IMG/VR virus record: IMGVR_UViG_2751185972_000002
Reading direction: 5' to 3' (one strand)
Length of the DNA stretch: 15,370 nt
Source of the DNA: a virus
Lineage: Duplodnaviria > Heunggongvirae > Uroviricota > Caudoviricetes
In this document: piece after piece, positions 1-15,370 of the stretch
How the letters are laid out: each line of letters opens with the position of its first letter
Numbering within the stretch: the stretch's first letter is position 1
Position numbers and translations under genes: made by a program
Notes under the pieces: generated by a model
What the model was told of the DNA's origin: nothing
Database searches by the model: none
The model's input: only the letters and a program-made list of their open reading frames with translations

Positions 1-705
1 AAGACCGCACGAATATAACGGTGGGTTCCCCCCAAACGAATCGGAAAATCGATACTGGAAAAACTCTAACTCGGTGGCCAGTTTTTGTTGACCACTTCAA
101 ACCGCAAAAAAGCGAACGTCATGCGCCCGGTGGAGTACCAGAACGGCGAAGCATTCACTATCCGTAACGTACAGGTTATGCCTGAATCCATTCCGGCTGG
201 CTTTAAGGCACTGGCTGACATGAGTCCGTTTGAATCCCTGCTGATTGTGGATTTGGGCGGAACCACGCTGGATGTGGCAAAGGTTCAGGGGCAACTGGCA
301 GGTATCAGCCAGGTGTTTTGCGATCCACACGTGGGCGTTTCTCTGATGGCCGATGCCGTACTGTCGGTGATGGCCACTAACGGTATGCGCACCAGTCACC
401 ACATCGCCAATACCATTATCGAACATCGCCATGATGAAGCCTGGCTGCGCCAGCACATCCACAATGACGCGCATTACGCCAGCCTGATGGCGGTAATTCG
501 TGAAAAGGAAGAAACACTGAAACAACGCGTGATCCGCGCGCTGGCGGTTTTTTCGGGTTACGGGCGGGTGATGGTTGTCGGTGGAGGGGCGGAGATTGTG
601 GCACCCGCTATCCGCGAAGCCTGCGGAGTTAATGCGACTTTCATCGCGGACGGGGTGCCACAGTTTGCTCTGGTTAATGGGCTGTACGCAATGGACAAGG
701 AGTAA
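1..705 (+). pseudogene. parM: ParM/StbA-like actin-type segregation ATPase; 5' end off-window and reading frame disrupted near 82-90
   Basis: ORF 85..705 (206 aa) aligns, by recall, with the C-terminal ~185 residues of plasmid R1 ParM (RKKAN, FTIxxVxVMPESIPAG, LIVDLGGTTLD, VMVVGGGAE). The same frame has stops at 16-18 and 67-69. Frame +2 is open from the window start to a TGA at 89-91 and reads ...FPPNESEN..., resembling the ParM segment just upstream. This implies a 1-nt indel around the T5 run 82-86. Confidence 0.55.
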
Positions 706-709
706 ACCA

Positions 710-1021
710 ATGACGACTCCAACCAGACGGATAAGTTTCTATCTGAAGCCCACCGCCGTCAAGAACGAAGGAGAAGCATGCGCCTGGCTGGACAGCCTTA
801 CACCAGAAGCCCGCAAAAGCGGCCAACGCGTGGCTTTTCTGGCCGGGCTGGCACTTCTGAAAATGAATCCGGCAGAGGCTTATCGACTGGCTGCATGGGC
901 TGGTGATGAAGCGTTATCAGTGACACAAACCAGGACAGAACGCCCCGCATCACAGCCAGTATCAACCGCACAGATAACCAGTCAGATGGCCGGAAATATC
1001 CGGGCGTTATTTCCTGAATAA
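710..1021 (+). CDS. parR: ParR-like ribbon-helix-helix DNA-binding protein (partition adaptor-like), 103 aa
   Basis: RBS AAGGAG 8 nt upstream of ATG 710, 4 nt after the parM-like stop. N-terminal residues RRISFYLKP...AWLDSLTPEARKSGQRVAFLAGLAL resemble R1 ParR (RRTIAFKLNP...CDTLDSIPQGERS...AALTAGLAL) by recall. Position directly downstream of parM matches parMR operon order. The track ORF 575..1021 is an upstream extension overlapping parM. Confidence 0.6.
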   Translation: MTTPTRRISFYLKPTAVKNEGEACAWLDSLTPEARKSGQRVAFLAGLALLKMNPAEAYRLAAWAGDEALSVTQTRTERPASQPVSTAQITSQMAGNIRALFPE

Positions 1022-1029
1022 CACAACAT

Positions 1030-1047
1030 CAGGGCGAGTTCGCCCTG
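1030..1047. repeat. GC-rich palindrome CAGGGCGA-gt-TCGCCCTG (hairpin) 38 bp upstream of ORF 1085
   Basis: Arms 1030-1037 and 1040-1047 are perfect reverse complements. The same arm sequence recurs at 1688-1713. No T-tract follows. Confidence 0.6.
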
Positions 1048-1084
1048 CTCTCCACCTCAGAACATAAACAAGGAGAACGACTTA

Positions 1085-1675
1085 ATGAGCGAAATCAACT
1101 ATCAGGCATTACGTGAACGTTATTCACCTGTGCCAGTACCGAAATGCCCTATTTGCGGCGAGGAAATGTCAATTCAGCGAATATCTGGAGCACAGGTTGT
1201 TTATGCCTGCTCCGGTTATGGTGATGATGGAGATTTCAAAATTGGCCGAACTCTTGCTGACGAACATTATGAAAAATCACGCGTAACAGTGTTGGATGTC
1301 GGGGATCCTGAAGTATTGGCGCTACTTGATTGGCTGGAAACCAAAGACAACCGAATCGCTGAACTGGAAAAAATCGCCACTGACTATGCACTTAAATTCC
1401 AGAAAGCACAGGACGCATTAAAGCATGCCGCTTTGCTGCATAGCAGGACGGCGCAACAAACAAATAATTTTGCAGTATCGCTTCCGGACATAAGCGAATA
1501 TTTCATTAATGACGTATTTCAGCCCTTGCGATACGAGCGGGATGTTGAAAGAGCCATCATAAAGGCTGGCGGAAAAGCATTGTGGCAGGAGAAACACGAG
1601 GACAGAACGCATCAGTCATGCGATGTAAATTGTGGATGGTTTAGCCCACTGACGACAGATAAAAATAACACCTGA
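1085..1675 (+). CDS. hypothetical protein, 196 aa; N-terminal CPICG Cys motif plus predicted coiled coil; possible ead/Ea22-like relative
   Basis: Strong RBS AAGGAG 7 nt upstream of ATG 1085; clean 196-codon ORF. Visibly more AT-rich than neighbours. N-terminus (xINYQALRE) and LALLDWLE coiled-coil segment recall the ead/Ea22-like family of lambdoid prophages; this assignment is tentative and unsearched. Confidence 0.65.
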   Translation: MSEINYQALRERYSPVPVPKCPICGEEMSIQRISGAQVVYACSGYGDDGDFKIGRTLADEHYEKSRVTVLDVGDPEVLALLDWLETKDNRIAELEKIATDYALKFQKAQDALKHAALLHSRTAQQTNNFAVSLPDISEYFINDVFQPLRYERDVERAIIKAGGKALWQEKHEDRTHQSCDVNCGWFSPLTTDKNNT

Positions 1676-1687
1676 TCCCCCTCAAAC

Positions 1688-1713
1688 CAGGGCGATAATC
1701 GCACATCGCCCTG
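1688..1713. repeat. GC-rich palindrome CAGGGCGAT-(8 nt)-ATCGCCCTG 13 bp downstream of ORF 1085..1675
   Basis: Arms 1688-1696 and 1705-1713 are perfect reverse complements and share the CAGGGCGA/TCGCCCTG core with the hairpin at 1030-1047. Possible terminator or cassette boundary; no T-tract follows. Confidence 0.6.
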
Positions 1714-1714
1714 C

Positions 1715-1741
1715 TGCACAATAGTGCACAAATTTGCACAA
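1715..1741. repeat. Three direct TGCACAA heptamers spaced exactly 10 bp apart (1715, 1725, 1735); a fourth copy at 1807-1813
   Basis: Read directly: TGCACAAtagTGCACAAattTGCACAAttttttt. Helical-phase spacing suggests a protein-binding array (operator, iteron or centromere-like). Confidence 0.55.
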
Positions 1742-2112
1742 TTTTTTTGAACGAATTTTTGCCCTTCCAGCCCGCGTGGCGGCTGGATCCGTCAAGGATC
1801 CGTGCGTGCACAAAAAAACGCGCTTTTTCTGCGCGCAGGTGACGGGGGAACAGCCCGCGTTTCAGGGGGTAAATAGCGTTCCCTTAACGATGTCGCAGCG
1901 ACACGACAGAATGGCCGTATTTCTCACGCTGAGCGTGAAAAATACGTGAGGGATTCTGATTTGATGGGGTGAAAGGTAAGGCCGTCAAAATCGCACTGAG
2001 GCGGCGAGAACATGCAGTCAACGCGGTGGGATTGCGTAAGAGTCTGACCGTCGATGGTGGCGATAAACTGGAAGGCGTCGTGAAATTATCTGACTGATAC
2101 AGGAGCTGGAGA

Positions 2113-2141
2113 GTCGGGGCATAAATTTTTTATGCCCCGGC
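2113..2141. repeat. Perfect 11-bp inverted repeat CGGGGCATAAA-ttt-TTTATGCCCCG between convergent accessory genes and Q
   Basis: Arms 2115-2125 and 2129-2139 are exact reverse complements. Lies about 25 bp beyond the Q stop. May be a bidirectional terminator-like hairpin, but no flanking U-tract on either strand. Confidence 0.45.
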
Positions 2142-2165
2142 GAAGCAGCAGACAAGCGAAGCGCG

Positions 2166-3212
2166 TCAGGATGTGGGCTGGATGTCTAACAGTGCGTAAG
2201 GGTTAAAGCGGATCACCTCTTCGCCAAGCCAGTCATTGATGTGCTTCATGGCCTCCATGACGGGCATCAGCTCGTTAATTGCGTAAACCCGCGCGGCCTT
2301 CTCCACATCACCAAACGCACTTTTTTCACCCGGCATCGCCCCCATCAGTTGCGGCGGAACGCGGTGCGCAGCCAGCACATCATCACGGGATGCCGCCTTA
2401 ACATTCATGAACTCATCCTTTGCGGTGATCTGCTGGAACGGCAAAATTTGCACCCCCTCTTTGCCCCCGTTGGGCGCATGAATGAGCACGTTTTTAAACG
2501 CACCACCACCACGCGCACCCTGTAGCGTTTCTTTCAGGGAGTCCATGCTTTCGCGGTTTACCTGCGCGGCACCGATGTAGATGATGCACCCGGCGTGGGA
2601 TCCGTTGTCGTAATACAGTTTTCTGAACATGTCCGCCGAATGAGACAGGCTGGCCGAGAGTAATGCGCCGAGATATTCCGGCATGCCGTAGATTTCCTGG
2701 TTAATGTCAGGATTCATCAGGTGACACACTTTGCCTGGGCGAAACTGAAACGCATCCTTGCCATCCTGCACATACCTCCATGATTCAAGATCGCTTCCGC
2801 GTCGCATGTATTTCGCCAGGGCGTGCCGTAATTTAAGCGGTTCGCCGAGCATATTGCTTCGAAGCTCAAGGAATGCGTTACCGAACACAAACCAGTCCAG
2901 CGCCAGCGCCGAGAAATCCTGCCGGGAAAGCAGCGGGTGCGGGATGTAGCAACCGAGCAATACATTGCGCTTAAAATAAAGCGCAGACTGATGCCAGGAC
3001 GTTTGCCGGGCAGCTCTTGCCAGACCGTACCAGTCCACCGGGGTTTCATACCACCGCCCGTTATCAGCACAGTACATATTGTCCAGCAGGTCATGCCCGG
3101 TCAGGCGATAAGGACCATCAAATGTGAATGCACTGAGCGATGATTCTTTCCTGAGCGCATCAGCGAGATCAATGCGTGAACTCATGCGCACTTTTTTATT
3201 TTTTCTGCTCAT
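2166..3212 (-). CDS. Q: portal protein (P2 gpQ-like), 348 aa
   Basis: Length matches P2 Q (344 aa by recall). Immediately downstream of, and overlapping by 1 nt (TGATG), the terminase gene, as in the P2 P-Q operon. RBS GGAG 7 nt upstream of ATG at 3212. Confidence 0.88.
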   Translation of the reverse strand: MSRKNKKVRMSSRIDLADALRKESSLSAFTFDGPYRLTGHDLLDNMYCADNGRWYETPVDWYGLARAARQTSWHQSALYFKRNVLLGCYIPHPLLSRQDFSALALDWFVFGNAFLELRSNMLGEPLKLRHALAKYMRRGSDLESWRYVQDGKDAFQFRPGKVCHLMNPDINQEIYGMPEYLGALLSASLSHSADMFRKLYYDNGSHAGCIIYIGAAQVNRESMDSLKETLQGARGGGAFKNVLIHAPNGGKEGVQILPFQQITAKDEFMNVKAASRDDVLAAHRVPPQLMGAMPGEKSAFGDVEKAARVYAINELMPVMEAMKHINDWLGEEVIRFNPYALLDIQPTS

Positions 3213-4963
3213 CAGAACTCCATAACCGTGAAACGCTCGTTTTCTCCTTCGCCGCCAATCGGTTCGTTAATGACAGCAAGCATGGTTGCCCACGCAAGGT
3301 CGCCGTGGCTGATCCCCCTCGCTCGGTCCGTTTCGTAAGTGATAAAGCCGCCCGGTGTTTTCACCTTACGCACGGCGTTAAAGGCCGCGACCAGCTCGCG
3401 TTCGGCGCGATCGTATTCCCACCGCCCGGCACGCATTATTTGCAGCATTTTCAGTACCAGCGACCGTTTTGATGACAGCGTGAAGGTGTACGGAATAGCG
3501 GCAGGGAAAAACCGTTTCACTATCTGATAAACAGCCTCCCCGTTCCCGCCCGTCACATCAATGCCGATGTGTTCCACGTTGTAGCGACACGTGAACTCTT
3601 CAATGACTCTGGCCTGTTCTTCAAACTCCAGCCCCTGAACGCGTCGCGTCTCCACCGTTCGAAAACGGCCACCAGGAACAGACGGAGGAACCACCACGGA
3701 CACAGCGCCGCTGTCGCCGTTGCCACTGCTGCCGTTTGCGTCATACCCAATCCATACCGGACGATTCCCCATCGGGCGGGGAGCAAAAGGTTTCCAGTCT
3801 TTCCAGTCGTCGTATCCGTCAACGCCGCAGCCAATCAGGATATTCAGGTTAAATGCCGATTCCCCTTCGCGGACAAACTCACACATATAGAGATTGAGGA
3901 ACTCGTCTTCGGTGTTTTCATCACGAATTTCGTCGATATCGGTGTGTTTCCAGCCGTGATTAACCACATCTTCCAGCGTGACAATTTGCCGCCACGTCCG
4001 GTCAGGGCAGATAAGCCCGTTATGCAGCGTTTTCCAGTCCACAGAAAAACGCTGGCGTTTATGCGAGGCCTTTTTCTCGTTCCAGCGGTCGCCGTTCCAG
4101 TAGGCGTATGCCTCGTGCGTTTCGGTGGATGGCGTGGAGAAGTAGGTGCGCCGCAGTCCGCTGAGGGTTGCCATAGCGCCAGCCACCTTGCGCAGTTCAG
4201 CAAAGCGACTGACCCAGAAAAATTCATCAAAATAAAAATTGCCCGTATAGGACTGTGCCGACGCAGCAGAAGTGCCGAGAAAATGCAGCTCTGCGCCGTT
4301 GGAGAGGATGATTTTATCGCCCCCTTTCAGCTCCACATCAACTTCAGCCGCGGCCTTCTGAATAATGCTTTTAAACTGGAACGCCTGACGACGCGACGCA
4401 GACAAAAAAATCTGGTTACGCTGGTAAGGTTGCGCCACATCGTCACGCAGCGCCATCAGCAGTGCTTCCTGTGCAAAATACCAGGTCGCCCCAATCTGTC
4501 GGGATTTCAGGATCATCCTGTTACGTATCCCGGCTTCCCTGCAAAGGGTCAGGGAGTCAAACCAGCCCCGCTGATGCCACTCCAGCCTGCTGATGATTTT
4601 TTCCCGCAGTGCGGCAATCTGTTCCGGCGTGAAATGATTTTTGAGTTTTTTCGCCCGGCCTTTCTTTCCTGCGGCCATCACATCCGGCTGGCCATCATGC
4701 AGCTTTTTAAGCTGCCGGGTCAGCAGGTCTATTTCCTTAAAGTCACCGCCTGTTTTATTCTGTTTTTCAGTAAGCTGGATGAGGCGCGCATCGATGGACT
4801 GCGTGACACGCTGCCCGGGTGGCGTTTCATCCCACTGGTCACGTTTTTTCCACGCATAAATCGTGTTCGGGTTTATTCCCATCAGACGTGATATTTCTGC
4901 GGGCGGATAACCCTGCCAGTAAAGTTGCCGCGCACGCTGGCGCACAAAAGCGTCCTGAATCAT
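3212..4963 (-). CDS. P: terminase large (ATPase) subunit (P2 gpP-like), 583 aa
   Basis: 583 aa vs P2 P 590 aa. N-terminal helix-turn-helix-like segment (YWQGYPPAEISRLMGINPNTIYAWKKR) typical of P2-family terminase ATPase. RBS GGGGGAG 5 nt upstream of ATG at 4963. Divergent from O as in P2. Confidence 0.9.
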   Translation of the reverse strand: MIQDAFVRQRARQLYWQGYPPAEISRLMGINPNTIYAWKKRDQWDETPPGQRVTQSIDARLIQLTEKQNKTGGDFKEIDLLTRQLKKLHDGQPDVMAAGKKGRAKKLKNHFTPEQIAALREKIISRLEWHQRGWFDSLTLCREAGIRNRMILKSRQIGATWYFAQEALLMALRDDVAQPYQRNQIFLSASRRQAFQFKSIIQKAAAEVDVELKGGDKIILSNGAELHFLGTSAASAQSYTGNFYFDEFFWVSRFAELRKVAGAMATLSGLRRTYFSTPSTETHEAYAYWNGDRWNEKKASHKRQRFSVDWKTLHNGLICPDRTWRQIVTLEDVVNHGWKHTDIDEIRDENTEDEFLNLYMCEFVREGESAFNLNILIGCGVDGYDDWKDWKPFAPRPMGNRPVWIGYDANGSSGNGDSGAVSVVVPPSVPGGRFRTVETRRVQGLEFEEQARVIEEFTCRYNVEHIGIDVTGGNGEAVYQIVKRFFPAAIPYTFTLSSKRSLVLKMLQIMRAGRWEYDRAERELVAAFNAVRKVKTPGGFITYETDRARGISHGDLAWATMLAVINEPIGGEGENERFTVMEF

Positions 4964-5117
4964 TGCTCCCCCTGAGTAATTACAGGAAGATTACCCGCGC
5001 GCGAAACTGTTCTCCTTAACCCTCTGTTCTGGCCGTTTTCTTACAACAAAAGCCCTTTGTATCAGCCTGTTACGCTTTGCCATCATGACTGAAGAACCAG
5101 TCAGAGGGGCAAAAACT
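4964..5117. promoter_or_regulatory. Divergent late promoter region between P and O (expected Ogr-type activator-dependent promoters)
   Basis: 154-bp gap between divergently transcribed P and O. In P2 this gap carries the late promoters activated by Ogr; that is established knowledge, not read from this sequence. The only symmetric element I see is an imperfect dyad ACAAA-agccc-TTTGT at 5046-5060. No clear sigma70 -35/-10, consistent with activator dependence. Confidence 0.35.
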
Positions 5118-5954
5118 ATGGCTAATGAAAAAAAGACATCCCGCAAAAAGTTTCGCGTGGCTGTCTCCGGATCAACTGTTGATGGCCGTGAAATCAGTCC
5201 GGTGCATCTGCGTGAAGCCGCCGAGAACTTCAACCCGGATGTTTACGCTGCCCGCGTGAACGTTGAGCACTATCTCTCGCCATGCCCGTCAAGCGAATTT
5301 TCCGCAATGGGCGATGTCACCGCACTGAGTACGGAAGAGATTACGGAAGGTCCGCTGGCCGGACGTACTGCGCTGTATGCAGAAATCGAACCGACCGAGC
5401 GCATGAAGCAGCTTGTTGCGGACGGCAAGAAAATCTATTCCAGTATCGAACTGCACCCGCAGTTCTCCGTTAACGGGCGCGCCTATCTGGTCGGGCTGGC
5501 GATGACCGACACCCCGGCAAGCCTGGGCACTGAGCGCCTGAAATTCACGGCACAGCAACGTCAGGCGGTGATGACGTTTAACAGTATCCAGGGTGAAGCG
5601 CCGCTTATCTCCGAAGCCATCGAGTCTGAAATCATCGAAATGGCAGAACAACGCCAGGAAGAAGGCACCCAGTGGTTTAACCGCGTAATGGGGATTATTG
5701 GCCGTGGCCGCAAAGCGGATGACGCCAGTTTTTCCCGTATTCAGGAAGCGGTGGAAGGCGTCGCAACGTCACAGGCCGACATTATCGACCGTTTTAATGT
5801 GCTGGAAACCCGCCATCAGCAGGACCGCCAGAAAATTACGTCACTGACCACAGAGCTGGCAGCACTGAAGGAAAAACTGCGCACGCAGGACGGCGATCCG
5901 CAGAACCGCTTCACCGCAACGGGCGCAGCCTCCGACCAGCTGGCCGACTTCTGA
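5118..5954 (+). CDS. O: capsid scaffolding protein (P2 gpO-like), 278 aa
   Basis: Start set to ATG 5118 (MANEKK...; RBS AGAGGGG upstream) rather than the track start 5085. Sequence KKFRVAVSGSTVDGREIS...YLVGLAMTDTPASLGTE parallels P2 gpO (FFRIGVEGDTCDGRVIS...YLVGLAVTDDPASLGTE, recall). P2 O is 284 aa. Confidence 0.88.
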   Translation: MANEKKTSRKKFRVAVSGSTVDGREISPVHLREAAENFNPDVYAARVNVEHYLSPCPSSEFSAMGDVTALSTEEITEGPLAGRTALYAEIEPTERMKQLVADGKKIYSSIELHPQFSVNGRAYLVGLAMTDTPASLGTERLKFTAQQRQAVMTFNSIQGEAPLISEAIESEIIEMAEQRQEEGTQWFNRVMGIIGRGRKADDASFSRIQEAVEGVATSQADIIDRFNVLETRHQQDRQKITSLTTELAALKEKLRTQDGDPQNRFTATGAASDQLADF

Positions 5955-5977
5955 TTAGACAAAGGAGCAAATTTTTT

Positions 5978-7029
5978 ATGAATCTGGTGATGTCAGATAT
6001 TACCCGCAACAAGCTGGGTTGCTATATGGCGCAGCAGGTGTCGCTTAATAATATCCCGGTATCTGCACTGGTGTCGCGATTTACCGTGGAACCCGCGGTG
6101 CAGCAGCGTTTTGAAAACGCCTCAAAGGAAAGTACCGAATTTACGAAAAAAATAACGTGATCGGCGTGACCGACCAGAAAGGCGAAAAAATCCTCCTGGA
6201 TACCACAGGACCGATTGCGCGCACGAATACCAGTTATGACGGCACAAAACGCCGTAACCCGAATAACGTGGTTGATCTGAAAAACCGCAAATATCAGTGT
6301 GAACAGGTGAACTACGACACGTTTATTTCGTATCCGCAGCTTGATGCCTGGTCGGCACACCCTGATTTTCAGTCCCGCATCAGCGCACAGATTGCCCGAC
6401 AGGTGGCGCTTGACCGCATCATGATCGGTTTCAACGGCACGTCTCACGCGGATGAGTCCAACTTCAGCACCAACAAGCTGCTTCAGGACGTTAACGTGGG
6501 CTGGCTGGAGCACATCAGAACCGACGCCAGCGAACGCGTTATGAATGACGTGACGCTGACCTCCCGCAACATGGACAACACCGTGGCGCACGCGGGTAAG
6601 TATGCGAACGCTGATGCACTGGTACAGGACGCGCGTTCATCCCTGCTGGATGAATGGCACAAGGAAGCTGACGACCTCGTGGTGATTATGGGGCGCAACC
6701 TGTTTAACTCGCTGCGTCTGCCCGTGCTGAACAGCATCAGCGGCCAGAATCCCAATGCGGAATTACTCGCCGGGCAGCTCATCCTGTCATCGCGCACCAT
6801 TGGCGGGCTGGGCGTGTTCCTTGCGCCGTTCTTCCCGGATGCAACGATGCTGATCACCTCGTTCAACAACCTGTCGATTTACTGGCAGAAAGGTTCAATG
6901 CGTCGCCTGATGAAAGACGAGCCGGAATACAACCGCATCGCCACCTACCAGTCCATCAATGACGCTTATGTCGTTGAAGACTATGGCAAGTGCGCGATGG
7001 TTACTGGCCTGAAGTTCGCCGACAGCTAA
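5978..7029 (+). pseudogene. N: major capsid protein (P2 gpN-like) with a 1-nt frameshift at the A7 run 6146-6152
   Basis: ORF 5978..6160 (60 aa; RBS AAGGAG; contains RFTVEPAV like P2 N KFTVEPSV) stops at TGA 6158-6160. ORF 6157..7029 (290 aa) continues the P2 N homology (KGEKI, MIGFNGT, VGWL, DLVVIMGR, LSIYW, DYVVEDY). Combined length ~350 aa vs P2 N 357 aa. Restoring one base at or next to the A7 tract gives a continuous ...EFTKKINVIGVTDQ... frame. Confidence 0.8.
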
Positions 7030-13375: not shown

Positions 13376-15043
13376 ATGAGTACCACAACACGAAAATTTA
13401 AAACCATTATCACCGATACGGGTGCAAAAAAATTAGCTCAGGTAGCCGCGCCAGATGGTAAGCCTGTCCGCCTGACTCATATGGCCGTGGGCGACGGTGG
13501 CGGCACGTTGCCCACACCAGACAGTAAGCAGACCCGTCTGGTGCATGAGGTGTGGCGACATACTGTTAATCGCGTCATCCTGGACGCAACACATCAGAAC
13601 CGCATTATTGCGGAGCTGGTTATTCCTCCTGAAACGGGCGGATTCTGGATCCGGGAAATTGGTGTATTTGATGAGCACGGCGATTTAATCGCGGTGGGAA
13701 ATACTGCCGAAAGTTACAAGCCAGCCGTTGCCGAAGGGTCCGGTCGTGCACAAACATTTCGCACCATTCTGACCGTATCCAGCACTGCCACCGTGGCGCT
13801 TACCGTGGACAACACCATGGTGATGGCCACAGTGGATTACGTGGATGACAAACTGAAAGAGCATGAACAGTCACGACGTCACCCGGACGCCTCGCTGACC
13901 GCAAAAGGCTTTGTTCAACTCAGTAGCGCCACTAACAGCGTGTCTGAAACGCAGGCTGCAACACCGAAAGCAGTAAAGGCCGCGTATGATCTTGCTAACG
14001 GTAAATATACTGCGCAGGATGCCAGCACGACGCGAAAAGGCCTTGTCCAGCTCAGTAGCGCCACCAACAGCACGTCTGAAACGCAGGCTGCAACGCCGAA
14101 AGCAGTAAAGGCCGCGTATGACCTTGCTAACGCAAAATATACCGCTCAGGACGCCACGACGGCACAAAAAGGGATAGTCCAGCTCAGTAGTGCCACCAAC
14201 AGCACGTCTGAAACACTGGCCGCGACATCGAAAGCGGTTAAGGCGGTAATGGATGAAACGAACAAGAAAGCGCCCTTAAACAGTCCTGCGCTGACCGGAA
14301 CGCCAACAACGCCAGCTGCGCGACAGGGAACGAATAATACCCAAATCGCAAGCACGGCTTTCGTTATGGCTGCGATTGCCGCCCTTGTAGATTCGTCACC
14401 TGACGCACTGAATACGCTGAACGAGTTAGCGGCGGCGCTGGGAAACGCCCCGAATTTTGCGACCACCATGACTAACGCGCTTGCGGGTAAGCAACCGAAA
14501 GATGCCACCCTGACGGCGCTGGCCGGGCTTGCTACTGCGGCAGACAGGTTTCCGTATTTTACGGGGAATGATGTCGCCAGCCTGGCAACCCTGACAAAAG
14601 TCGGGCGGGATATTCTTGCGAAATCGACCGTTGCTGCCGTTATCGAATACCTCGGTTTACAGGAAACGGTAAACAGGGCTGGTAACGCCGTGCAAAAAAA
14701 TGGCGATACCTTGTCCGGTGGGCTTACTTTTGAAAATGACTCAATCCTTGCCTGGATTCGAAATACTGACTGGGCGAAGATTGGATTTAAAAATGATGCC
14801 GATGGTGACACTGATTCATACATGTGGTTTGAAACAGGCGACAACGGCAATGAATATTTCAAATGGAGAAGCCGCCAGAGCACCACAACAAAAGACCTGA
14901 TGACGCTGAAATGGGATGCACTAAATATTCTTGTTAATGCTGTCATTAATGGCAGTCTTGGAGTTGGTTCGACGAATGCGTTAGGTGGTAGCTCTGAACC
15001 GCCCCGGGAATCCTGGAGACTAAACTTCCTGAGAAAGAGGTAA
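13376..15043 (+). CDS. H: tail fiber protein (P2 gpH-like), 3' end replaced by an IS insertion; last 16 codons are IS-derived
   Basis: Near-identity by recall to P2 gpH over N-terminal and central regions ([58 protein letters not shown]..., [15 protein letters not shown]). Homology ends at about aa 540 of the 669 expected for P2 H, where the IS left end begins at 14995. The ORF then reads through the IS terminus to TAA 15041-15043. Confidence 0.85.
13904..14250 (+). repeat. In-frame 132-bp (44-aa) tandem repeat within the tail fiber gene, about 2.6 copies
   Basis: Units start at 13904, 14036 and 14168, exact 132-nt period, encoding [45 protein letters not shown]. The third copy diverges after KAVKAV. 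Typical phage tail-fibre repeat. Confidence 0.8.
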
Positions 15044-15370
15044 ACAGGATGACTAAAAATACTCGTTTTTCCCCCGAAGTCCGTCAGAGGGCGATTCGTA
15101 TGGTTCTGGAAAGTCAGGGCGAATATGACTCACAGTGGGCGGCAATTTGTTCCATTGCCCCAAAGATTGGCTGTACACCGGAGACTCTGCGTGTCTGGGT
15201 ACGCCAGCATGAGCGGGATACCGGAGGCGGTGATGGCGGGCTCACCACCGCTGAACGTCAGCGTCTGAAAGAGCTGGAACGTGAAAATTGTGAACTGCGC
15301 CGCAGTAACGATATCCTTCGCCAGGCTTCCGCTTATTTTGCGAAGGCGGAGTTCGACCGCCTCTGGAAAA
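14995..15370 (+). mobile_element. IS3-family insertion sequence (IS629/IS1203-like), left end; continues beyond the window
   Basis: Terminus begins TGAACCGCCCCGGG (IS3-family TGA... end) at 14995, exactly where P2 H homology stops. OrfA starts 54 nt inside. OrfA sequence matches IS629-group transposase OrfA by recall. Confidence 0.8.
15049..15370 (+). CDS. IS3-family transposase OrfA (helix-turn-helix / leucine-zipper subunit), 3' end cut by the window edge
   Basis: RBS AAGAGG upstream of ATG 15049. [107 protein letters not shown] matches IS629/IS1203 OrfA (recall). The window ends in the A-run where the IS3-family -1 frameshift site is expected. Confidence 0.88.

Follow-up and report, generated by a model that had tools for sequence, protein, structure and literature searches.

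Introduction

The major capsid protein of bacteriophage P2, gpN, has an HK97 fold, and its gene is accompanied by the genes encoding gpO, gpM, gpL, gpP and gpQ. The P2 capsid protein has a gpO cleavage site at residues 31/32, and in the structure of the P2/P4 procapsid its N-arm grips the adjacent subunit (PMC7552001). Closer relatives of the locus described here are the capsid genes of P88-like (Gemsvirus-Xuanwuvirus) prophages, represented by WP_001055089.1 of E. coli 504838 and by phages 500465-2 and P88. These genes are intact ORFs of 1053 nt. An A run in front of a premature stop has also been described in genes that are rescued by slippage, such as tssM1 with 11 A and the genes with 9A/9T of Baranov et al. 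(2005). Finally, decay of this kind has a familiar setting. Frameshift pseudogenes, IS expansion and IS-driven prophage decay are standard in Shigella genomes.

The DNA analysed here, called the window, is a stretch of 15,370 nt from the IMG/VR virus record IMGVR_UViG_2751185972_000002 (Caudoviricetes). It has the same gene order as the P88-like prophages and is 94-99.6% identical to them in DNA over O-N-M. In contrast to their intact capsid genes, gene N of the window has one base fewer and ends after 60 codons. P2 gpN is a full-length homologue of the repaired protein and shares its neighbours; compared with it, the break in the window lies at P2 residue ~55-56, and the N-arm and the cleavage site 31/32 are cut off from the fold. 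As in the slippage-rescued genes, the frame would be regained with a single additional A in the mRNA. Unlike in those genes, the run is only 7 A long and is not conserved, and the restored protein is altered at a conserved Ile. Set beside prophage decay in Shigella, with a clonally inherited frameshift, insertions of IS3-family elements and IS1, an IS-bounded early deletion and lineage-specific indels, the locus shows nothing unusual. Gene N is very probably a genuine, vertically inherited frameshift pseudogene in the remnant of a P88-like (Peduoviridae) Shigella prophage.

Two fragments of one capsid gene

The features that bear on gene N and on the state of the prophage are collected in Table 1. 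A preliminary description of the window had divided gene N into 60 and 290 codons that overlap at 6157-6160 and had placed an A7 run at 6146-6152, and all of these coordinates are correct. The first ORF is preceded by an AAGGAG Shine-Dalgarno sequence and its product ends in EFTKKIT. The second ORF is shifted to the -1 frame with respect to the first, and the two overlap in the tetranucleotide GTGA, in which the GTG start codon (6157-6159) and the TGA stop codon (6158-6160) are interleaved. Gene N is thus not one unbroken ORF of ~350 codons, since it has a premature TGA and its remainder is in the -1 frame.

Table 1. Features of the window relevant to the capsid gene and to decay of the prophage (window positions).
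Feature	Position	Strand	Basis or detail
End of an IS3-family element (~1-97) and 5'-truncated parM/stbA (206/319 codons)	1..705	+	E. coli homology from window 89-100
gpO scaffold/protease gene	5118..5954	+	Intact, 278 aa; called genes and Pfam in L006 (100% identical to the window)
Gene N, N-terminal fragment	5978..6160	+	ATG, 60 codons, premature TGA 6158-6160; PF05125 positions 4-49
A7 run	6146..6152	+	Derived state, from G>A at 6150 (AGA Arg58 > AAA Lys58)
Probable 1-nt deletion site	6153..6154	+	ATT (Ile59) > AT-; frame shifted, TGA 6158-6160 exposed
Gene N, C-terminal fragment	6157..7029	+	290 codons from GTG 6157; PF05125 positions 50-324, E=7e-102
Tail fibre gene H, truncated	13376..14995	+	Matches H of S. 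boydii ATCC 9210 and of E. coli up to 14995
IS3-family element, left end, inserted in H	14996..15370	+	Breakpoint and PF01527 HTH_Tnp_1

The two ORFs are not paired by chance but are the halves of a single capsid gene, because the profile PF05125 (Phage_cap_P2) is divided between them at positions 49/50 and becomes continuous after repair. With 1 nt restored, positions 4-324 are covered in a single match of 390 bits, and membership in the P2-family capsid proteins extends over the full length. The repaired protein of 350 aa matches P2 gpN (PDB 7jw1) with E=1e-81. Its position agrees with this assignment, as gene N lies between the scaffold gene O and the small terminase gene M. The Q-P genes are transcribed divergently, opposite the O-N-M side, and the order Q-P / O-N-M-L was confirmed by the context of gpO and by an annotated E. 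coli relative.

The lesion compared with intact relatives

Intact relatives of the gene were found in 16 phage records and, with identities of 90-99.6%, in more than 1000 complete E. coli genomes. The phage relatives include Escherichia phages 500465-2, 503458, 520873 and P88 and Citrobacter phage Shae_phiSM. The annotation 'major capsid protein, P2 family' is attached to all relatives that were listed or fetched. A single gene of 1053 nt (350 aa) is present in each of the four that were retrieved. The alignment spans 1202 nt in the intact orthologues versus 1201 nt in the window. The product is accordingly shortened to 60 aa, compared with 350 aa in the intact orthologues, as is characteristic of a frameshift pseudogene.

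The closest intact relatives read ACG AAA AGA ATT AAC GTG at the site, encoding T K R I N V. Phage P88 reads ACA AAA AAA ATT AAC GTG, with an in-frame A8 after ACA, and the window reads ACG AAA AAA AT- AAC GTG A. When aligned with the nearest intact genes, the window differs by two changes within 4 nt. One is the substitution of G by A at 6150, which changes AGA to AAA (R58K) and makes the A7 run; Lys58 is also found in P88. The other is the loss of one T of ATT (Ile59) after 6153. The placement of the deletion is not unique in the alignment, as loss of the G combined with T>A yields an identical sequence. It is more likely, from this comparison, that the missing base is the T after the run rather than an A within it. 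When the T is restored, the protein of 350 aa differs at two residues (A21V and R58K) from WP_001055089.1 of E. coli. A candidate for the in-frame ancestor, in which the G>A substitution would have preceded the deletion, is ACGAAAAAAATTAACGTG.

The preliminary description had named A8 as one corrected form of the tract. Lengthening the run to A8 does restore the frame; it also places Asn at residue 59, where Ile is found in six of six intact homologues compared (five relatives and P2 gpN), so that loss of the T is the likelier event. The Ile-Asn pair at the site is kept in P2 gpN (PDB 7jw1). A simple contraction from A8 to A7 was considered as the ancestral path and was rejected, as the relatives read AAAAGAATT or A8TT. 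The A8 repair was likewise set aside: it replaces the conserved Ile by Asn, and the exact protein it would produce is absent among ~15 billion proteins. Because the A7 run is itself derived, A8 is not the ancestral sequence.

Recurrence of the lesion in Shigella

Two database contigs, UViG_2751185970_000003 of IMG/VR and LPTF01000073.1 of GenBank, match the window with 100% identity. In public data, the exact ORF of 60 aa is indexed in 1122 blocks of assemblies, 21 of which have contigs longer than 1 Mb. The exact sequences of the two fragments are found on 636 contigs (60 aa) and 690 contigs (290 aa), and both carry the database name 'MULTISPECIES: P2 family phage major capsid protein [Shigella]'.

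Comparison with the same prophage in related strains had been proposed as a check. The identical 35-mer containing the lesion was found in all 15 of the related Shigella loci (L006-L020), which were drawn from exact look-ups of the tail fibre or of the 60-aa fragment and are 99.7-99.99% identical over ~15 kb. The nearest of the relatives, S. boydii ATCC 9210, differs from the window at 2 of 14,995 nt. Strains that carry the lesion have been described in several studies. They include S. flexneri serotype 6 strains 703427 and 600717 (PMC11708030) and FDAARGOS_714 and 64-5500 (PMC9455713), S. boydii ATCC 9210 (PMC6456863) and ATCC 8700 (PMC9430107), S. boydii 602068, sequenced with PacBio RS II and Illumina (PMC7545283), and S. 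boydii Z12985, sequenced with Illumina MiSeq (PMC8530036). The lesion recurs unchanged in 10 of 10 further loci that were retrieved, among them complete chromosomes of both S. boydii and S. flexneri serotype 6 obtained on different platforms. The lesion is thus inherited and is found in independent assemblies of related strains, and it is confined neither to one assembly nor to one error-prone platform.

The lesion and its possible one-step neighbours were also sought outside these strains. The one-step intermediates were A7TT in frame, AAAAGAA-T and A6TT, and the A8 revertant was sought along with them. The allele is carried by 801 complete E. coli genomes; none of these had the lesion of gene N, and none had an intermediate or a revertant, the best match to a 66-mer being 97.0%. 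Neither a one-step intermediate nor the A8 revertant of gene N was found in IMG/VR or in the JGI metagenomes. The species representatives of GTDB likewise gave no intermediate and no revertant, a weak negative in a set with one genome per species and few Shigella. Four reconstructed full-length proteins had no exact match among ~15 billion proteins.

Decay of the surrounding prophage

The prophage was also compared with an intact relative in E. coli GN05064. Its early side consists of int, C, cox, small early genes, gpA, parM, stbB and ead. Its late side consists of Q-P, O-N-M-L-X, the lysis genes, R-S-V-W-J-I-H-G, an invertase, U-T-E-FII-FI, D and ogr. The Shigella loci have an integrase remnant of 45 aa followed by two IS3-family elements, and homology resumes in the middle of parM. 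In the intact relative gpA is followed by a ParM of 319 aa, whereas the Shigella loci have IS transposases instead. Since homology picks up again only mid-parM after the IS elements, gpA and the early region are gone. Positions 1-705 of the window are the left breakpoint of an IS-mediated loss of the early region, including the replication gene A. The terminal repeat of the IS3-family element at this end (window 1-97) presumably belongs to an element resembling IS911.

The preliminary description had also reported a tail fibre gene disrupted by an IS. An IS3-family element does begin at 14996, and the ORF of the truncated H runs into it as far as 15043. In the relatives H encodes 661-716 aa, and S. 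boydii ATCC 9210 has an uninterrupted H of 716 aa; the E. coli sequence is likewise unbroken at 14996. Copies 99.7% identical to the element at 14996-15370 are found in more than 3000 plasmids, annotated as 'IS3 family transposase'; we take it to resemble IS629. The ORF across the junction (fused, 555 aa) is found on only 3 contigs, so that the insertion is recent and specific to the lineage of the source strain. The disruption of H is therefore real and lineage-specific, unlike the clade-wide frameshift in N, and, judged from this distribution, would be far younger. Within H, window 14031-14244 has a copy of 86% identity ~150 nt upstream, an internal repeat of the fibre shaft. This repeat gives a secondary BLAST match in every Shigella locus but L020.

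A multiple alignment was made of 11 Shigella copies of the prophage. The lesion in N is present in 11 of 11 copies and the other lesions are lineage-specific. In gpM, 10 bp are duplicated after window 7795 (248 vs 266 aa) in all copies but the window and ATCC 9210. Two deletions, one of 10 bp in the portal gene Q (3089-3098) and one of 12 bp at 1720-1731, are found in the S. flexneri serotype 6 group. ATCC 8700 has 1-nt deletions in gpW and gpJ, and a further locus (L017) has a 1-nt insertion in gpR. Further downstream in the element, sister strains have truncated genes for the tape measure and the tube, or insertions of IS1. As it is without the extra lesions of its sister lineages, the window is one of the least decayed copies. 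Every late gene in the window except N and H is full length, and the prophage is for this reason only lightly decayed. Selection may act on parts of the remnant. Further inactivating lesions are thus found in the same element, in gpA and the early region, in parM, in H and in the sister lineages. The frameshift in N and the deletion of the early region appear, from the pattern of sharing, to be the oldest of the shared lesions.

One Shigella genome (L032, CP026762.1) has a different arrangement. At 5662-6546 gpO is joined directly to the endolysin gene, and N, M, L, X and the holin gene have been deleted. The same genome has copies of IS1 within H and close to the gene for the tail tube.

A second frameshift at the same tract

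The tract in gene N has been altered in another prophage as well. In S. sonnei 53G (ADUU01000015.1), 3226-85 and a few others, ACA-A8-TT has become ACA-A7-TT in a different P88-like prophage. The altered site lies at about 10160-10185 in L022-L027 and is also found in L038. The products are a 60-aa fragment ending in TKKLT and a fragment of 290 aa, and they occur on 16 contigs. This prophage has an intact gpA and a different lysis cassette, and in two of the loci (L023 and L024) N is apparently the sole broken gene. Of the copies of this allele in IMG/VR, 18 are intact with A8 and 1 has A7; no A7 form of it was found among the complete E. coli genomes. Some of the assemblies with A7-TT look error-prone, as in L027, where the terminase gene is shattered; at least L023 and L026 have other origins, namely a draft recently added to GenBank and a Logan assembly of a read run. 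By its sequence, the S. sonnei-type lesion appears to be a true contraction of the homopolymer, independent of the lesion in the window. The zero-frame heptamer of this allele is A AAA AAA, and a -1 shift would give the wild-type protein.

Phage P88 (L003, ~420-445) has the in-frame A8 as a perfect A AAA AAA heptamer in an intact capsid gene. A -1 shift there would terminate within a few codons, and the heptamer is probably meaningless. The P88-type A8 heptamer is likely the reason that the tract is prone to mutation.

Alternative explanations

A frameshift next to an A-rich tract, in a record that is itself a short draft contig, could be an error of sequencing or assembly in a gene that is actually intact, and the preliminary description had left this open. 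The probability of such an error is now negligible. The identical lesion is present in complete genomes as well as drafts and in data from PacBio RS II with Illumina and from Illumina MiSeq; some of the lesion-bearing assemblies have two read sets each, and the fragments occur on 636 and 690 contigs. A homopolymer error tied to one platform is excluded by the identity of the lesion across strains, laboratories and platforms, including every related Shigella locus compared. Moreover, the difference from intact genes is a substitution together with an indel and not a mere change in run length. With the split real, just two routes would lead to the downstream 290 codons, reinitiation and a -1 shift. 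By the first, the 290-aa part could still be made by termination and reinitiation at GTGA and serve some function. The overlapping stop and start would allow this, and the 290-aa ORF differs by just one SNP across Shigella lineages. That constancy is uninformative, as the divergence among the lineages is 0.3% or less. The GTG at 6157 has no Shine-Dalgarno sequence, the product would be without the entire N-arm, including the gpO cleavage site 31/32, and N is deleted altogether in one Shigella genome (L032). A functional split gene is accordingly most improbable.

Recoding would make the gene functional in another way, if a -1 ribosomal frameshift or transcriptional slippage on A7 restored a useful level of full-length capsid protein. 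A -1 shift anywhere in 6115-6157 fuses both ORFs of gene N, the A7 run being the most obvious site, and Lys-tRNA could re-pair perfectly from AAA 6149-6151 to 6148-6150. The codon after the run, ATA, is rare in E. coli and might favour P-site slippage. Precedents for rescue by slippage are known on 11 A in tssM of C. rodentium (PMC4256274) and on 9 A in several genes (PMC1088944). In the window the zero frame reads ACG AAA AAA ATA, and the heptamer G AAA AAA is not the canonical X XXY YYZ. Slippage of bacterial RNA polymerase is reported to require runs of at least 7 T, or still longer ones of A (PMC6260861), and selection against runs becomes visible at ~9 nt (PMC1088944). The run of 7 A is shorter than the A/T run of ~9 nt, sometimes 8, that marks a slippage site. 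A stimulatory RNA structure downstream of A7 was considered: the fold beats shuffled sequence (z=-3.1), yet it is ordinary for this prophage, where 26-42% of windows of equal size are at least as stable, and its sequence is shared with intact genes. The two-ORF arrangement is not conserved, since the ORF is unbroken in the intact E. coli relatives, which number more than 800. The product of recoding would carry I59N, and it would be made by a prophage remnant without replication functions. The expectation that programmed frameshifting does not operate here is therefore upheld, with a non-canonical heptamer and no two-ORF layout in intact relatives; the heptamer, run length and conservation were examined and no support for it was found. 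Rescue of gene N by recoding is extremely unlikely. The same low standing applies to a reversible on/off (contingency) switch for virion production at the A-tract, which is scarcely credible here. It draws on the independent second 1-nt loss at the tract (A8>A7) in the different P88-like prophage of S. sonnei and others. Against it, no revertant or in-frame intermediate was found in the E. coli genomes, IMG/VR, the JGI metagenomes, GTDB or the ~15 billion proteins, and 0 of ~865 complete E. coli genomes with either allele are frameshifted at the tract. A change of run length alone also cannot return the allele of the window to the ancestral protein. A combined reading, in which the A-tract of codons 57-59 is a recurrent mutational switch in Shigella and low-level -1 slippage lets full-length capsid protein trickle through, is very unlikely. 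If it were true, capsid production would be throttled and not abolished. Low-level restoration of the frame might yield a trickle of full-length I59N capsid protein, but there is no sign that it is under selection or would suffice to assemble capsids.

Conclusion

The preferred reading is that gene N is a frameshift pseudogene of common descent. Against the intact orthologues one base is missing at the junction of codons 58 and 59, probably by a change of ATT to AT-, beside the G>A substitution that makes A7. Translation from 5978 ends at the TGA after 60 codons and the other 290 codons lie out of frame. The lesion would have had a single origin, in an ancestor of the clade with S. boydii (ATCC 9210, ATCC 8700, 602068 and Z12985) and S. 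flexneri serotype 6; different lineages have gained further lesions. We infer from this distribution a single origin, and from the broken frame that no functional capsid protein is made. The earlier proposal of a real, inactivating frameshift in a defective P2-like prophage is borne out by the loss of gpA and the early region and by the IS that cuts H. As the element is no working phage, with its early/replication region replaced by IS elements, the lesion in N would be carried passively.

In kind, the lesion is already known: it is ordinary prophage decay, and both fragments are already in RefSeq and UniRef. The two CDS that are listed there as separate Shigella major capsid proteins should be merged as one pseudogene. 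Prophage predictors should not call the remnant intact. The lesion in N is also a handy clade marker for strains of S. boydii and S. flexneri serotype 6.
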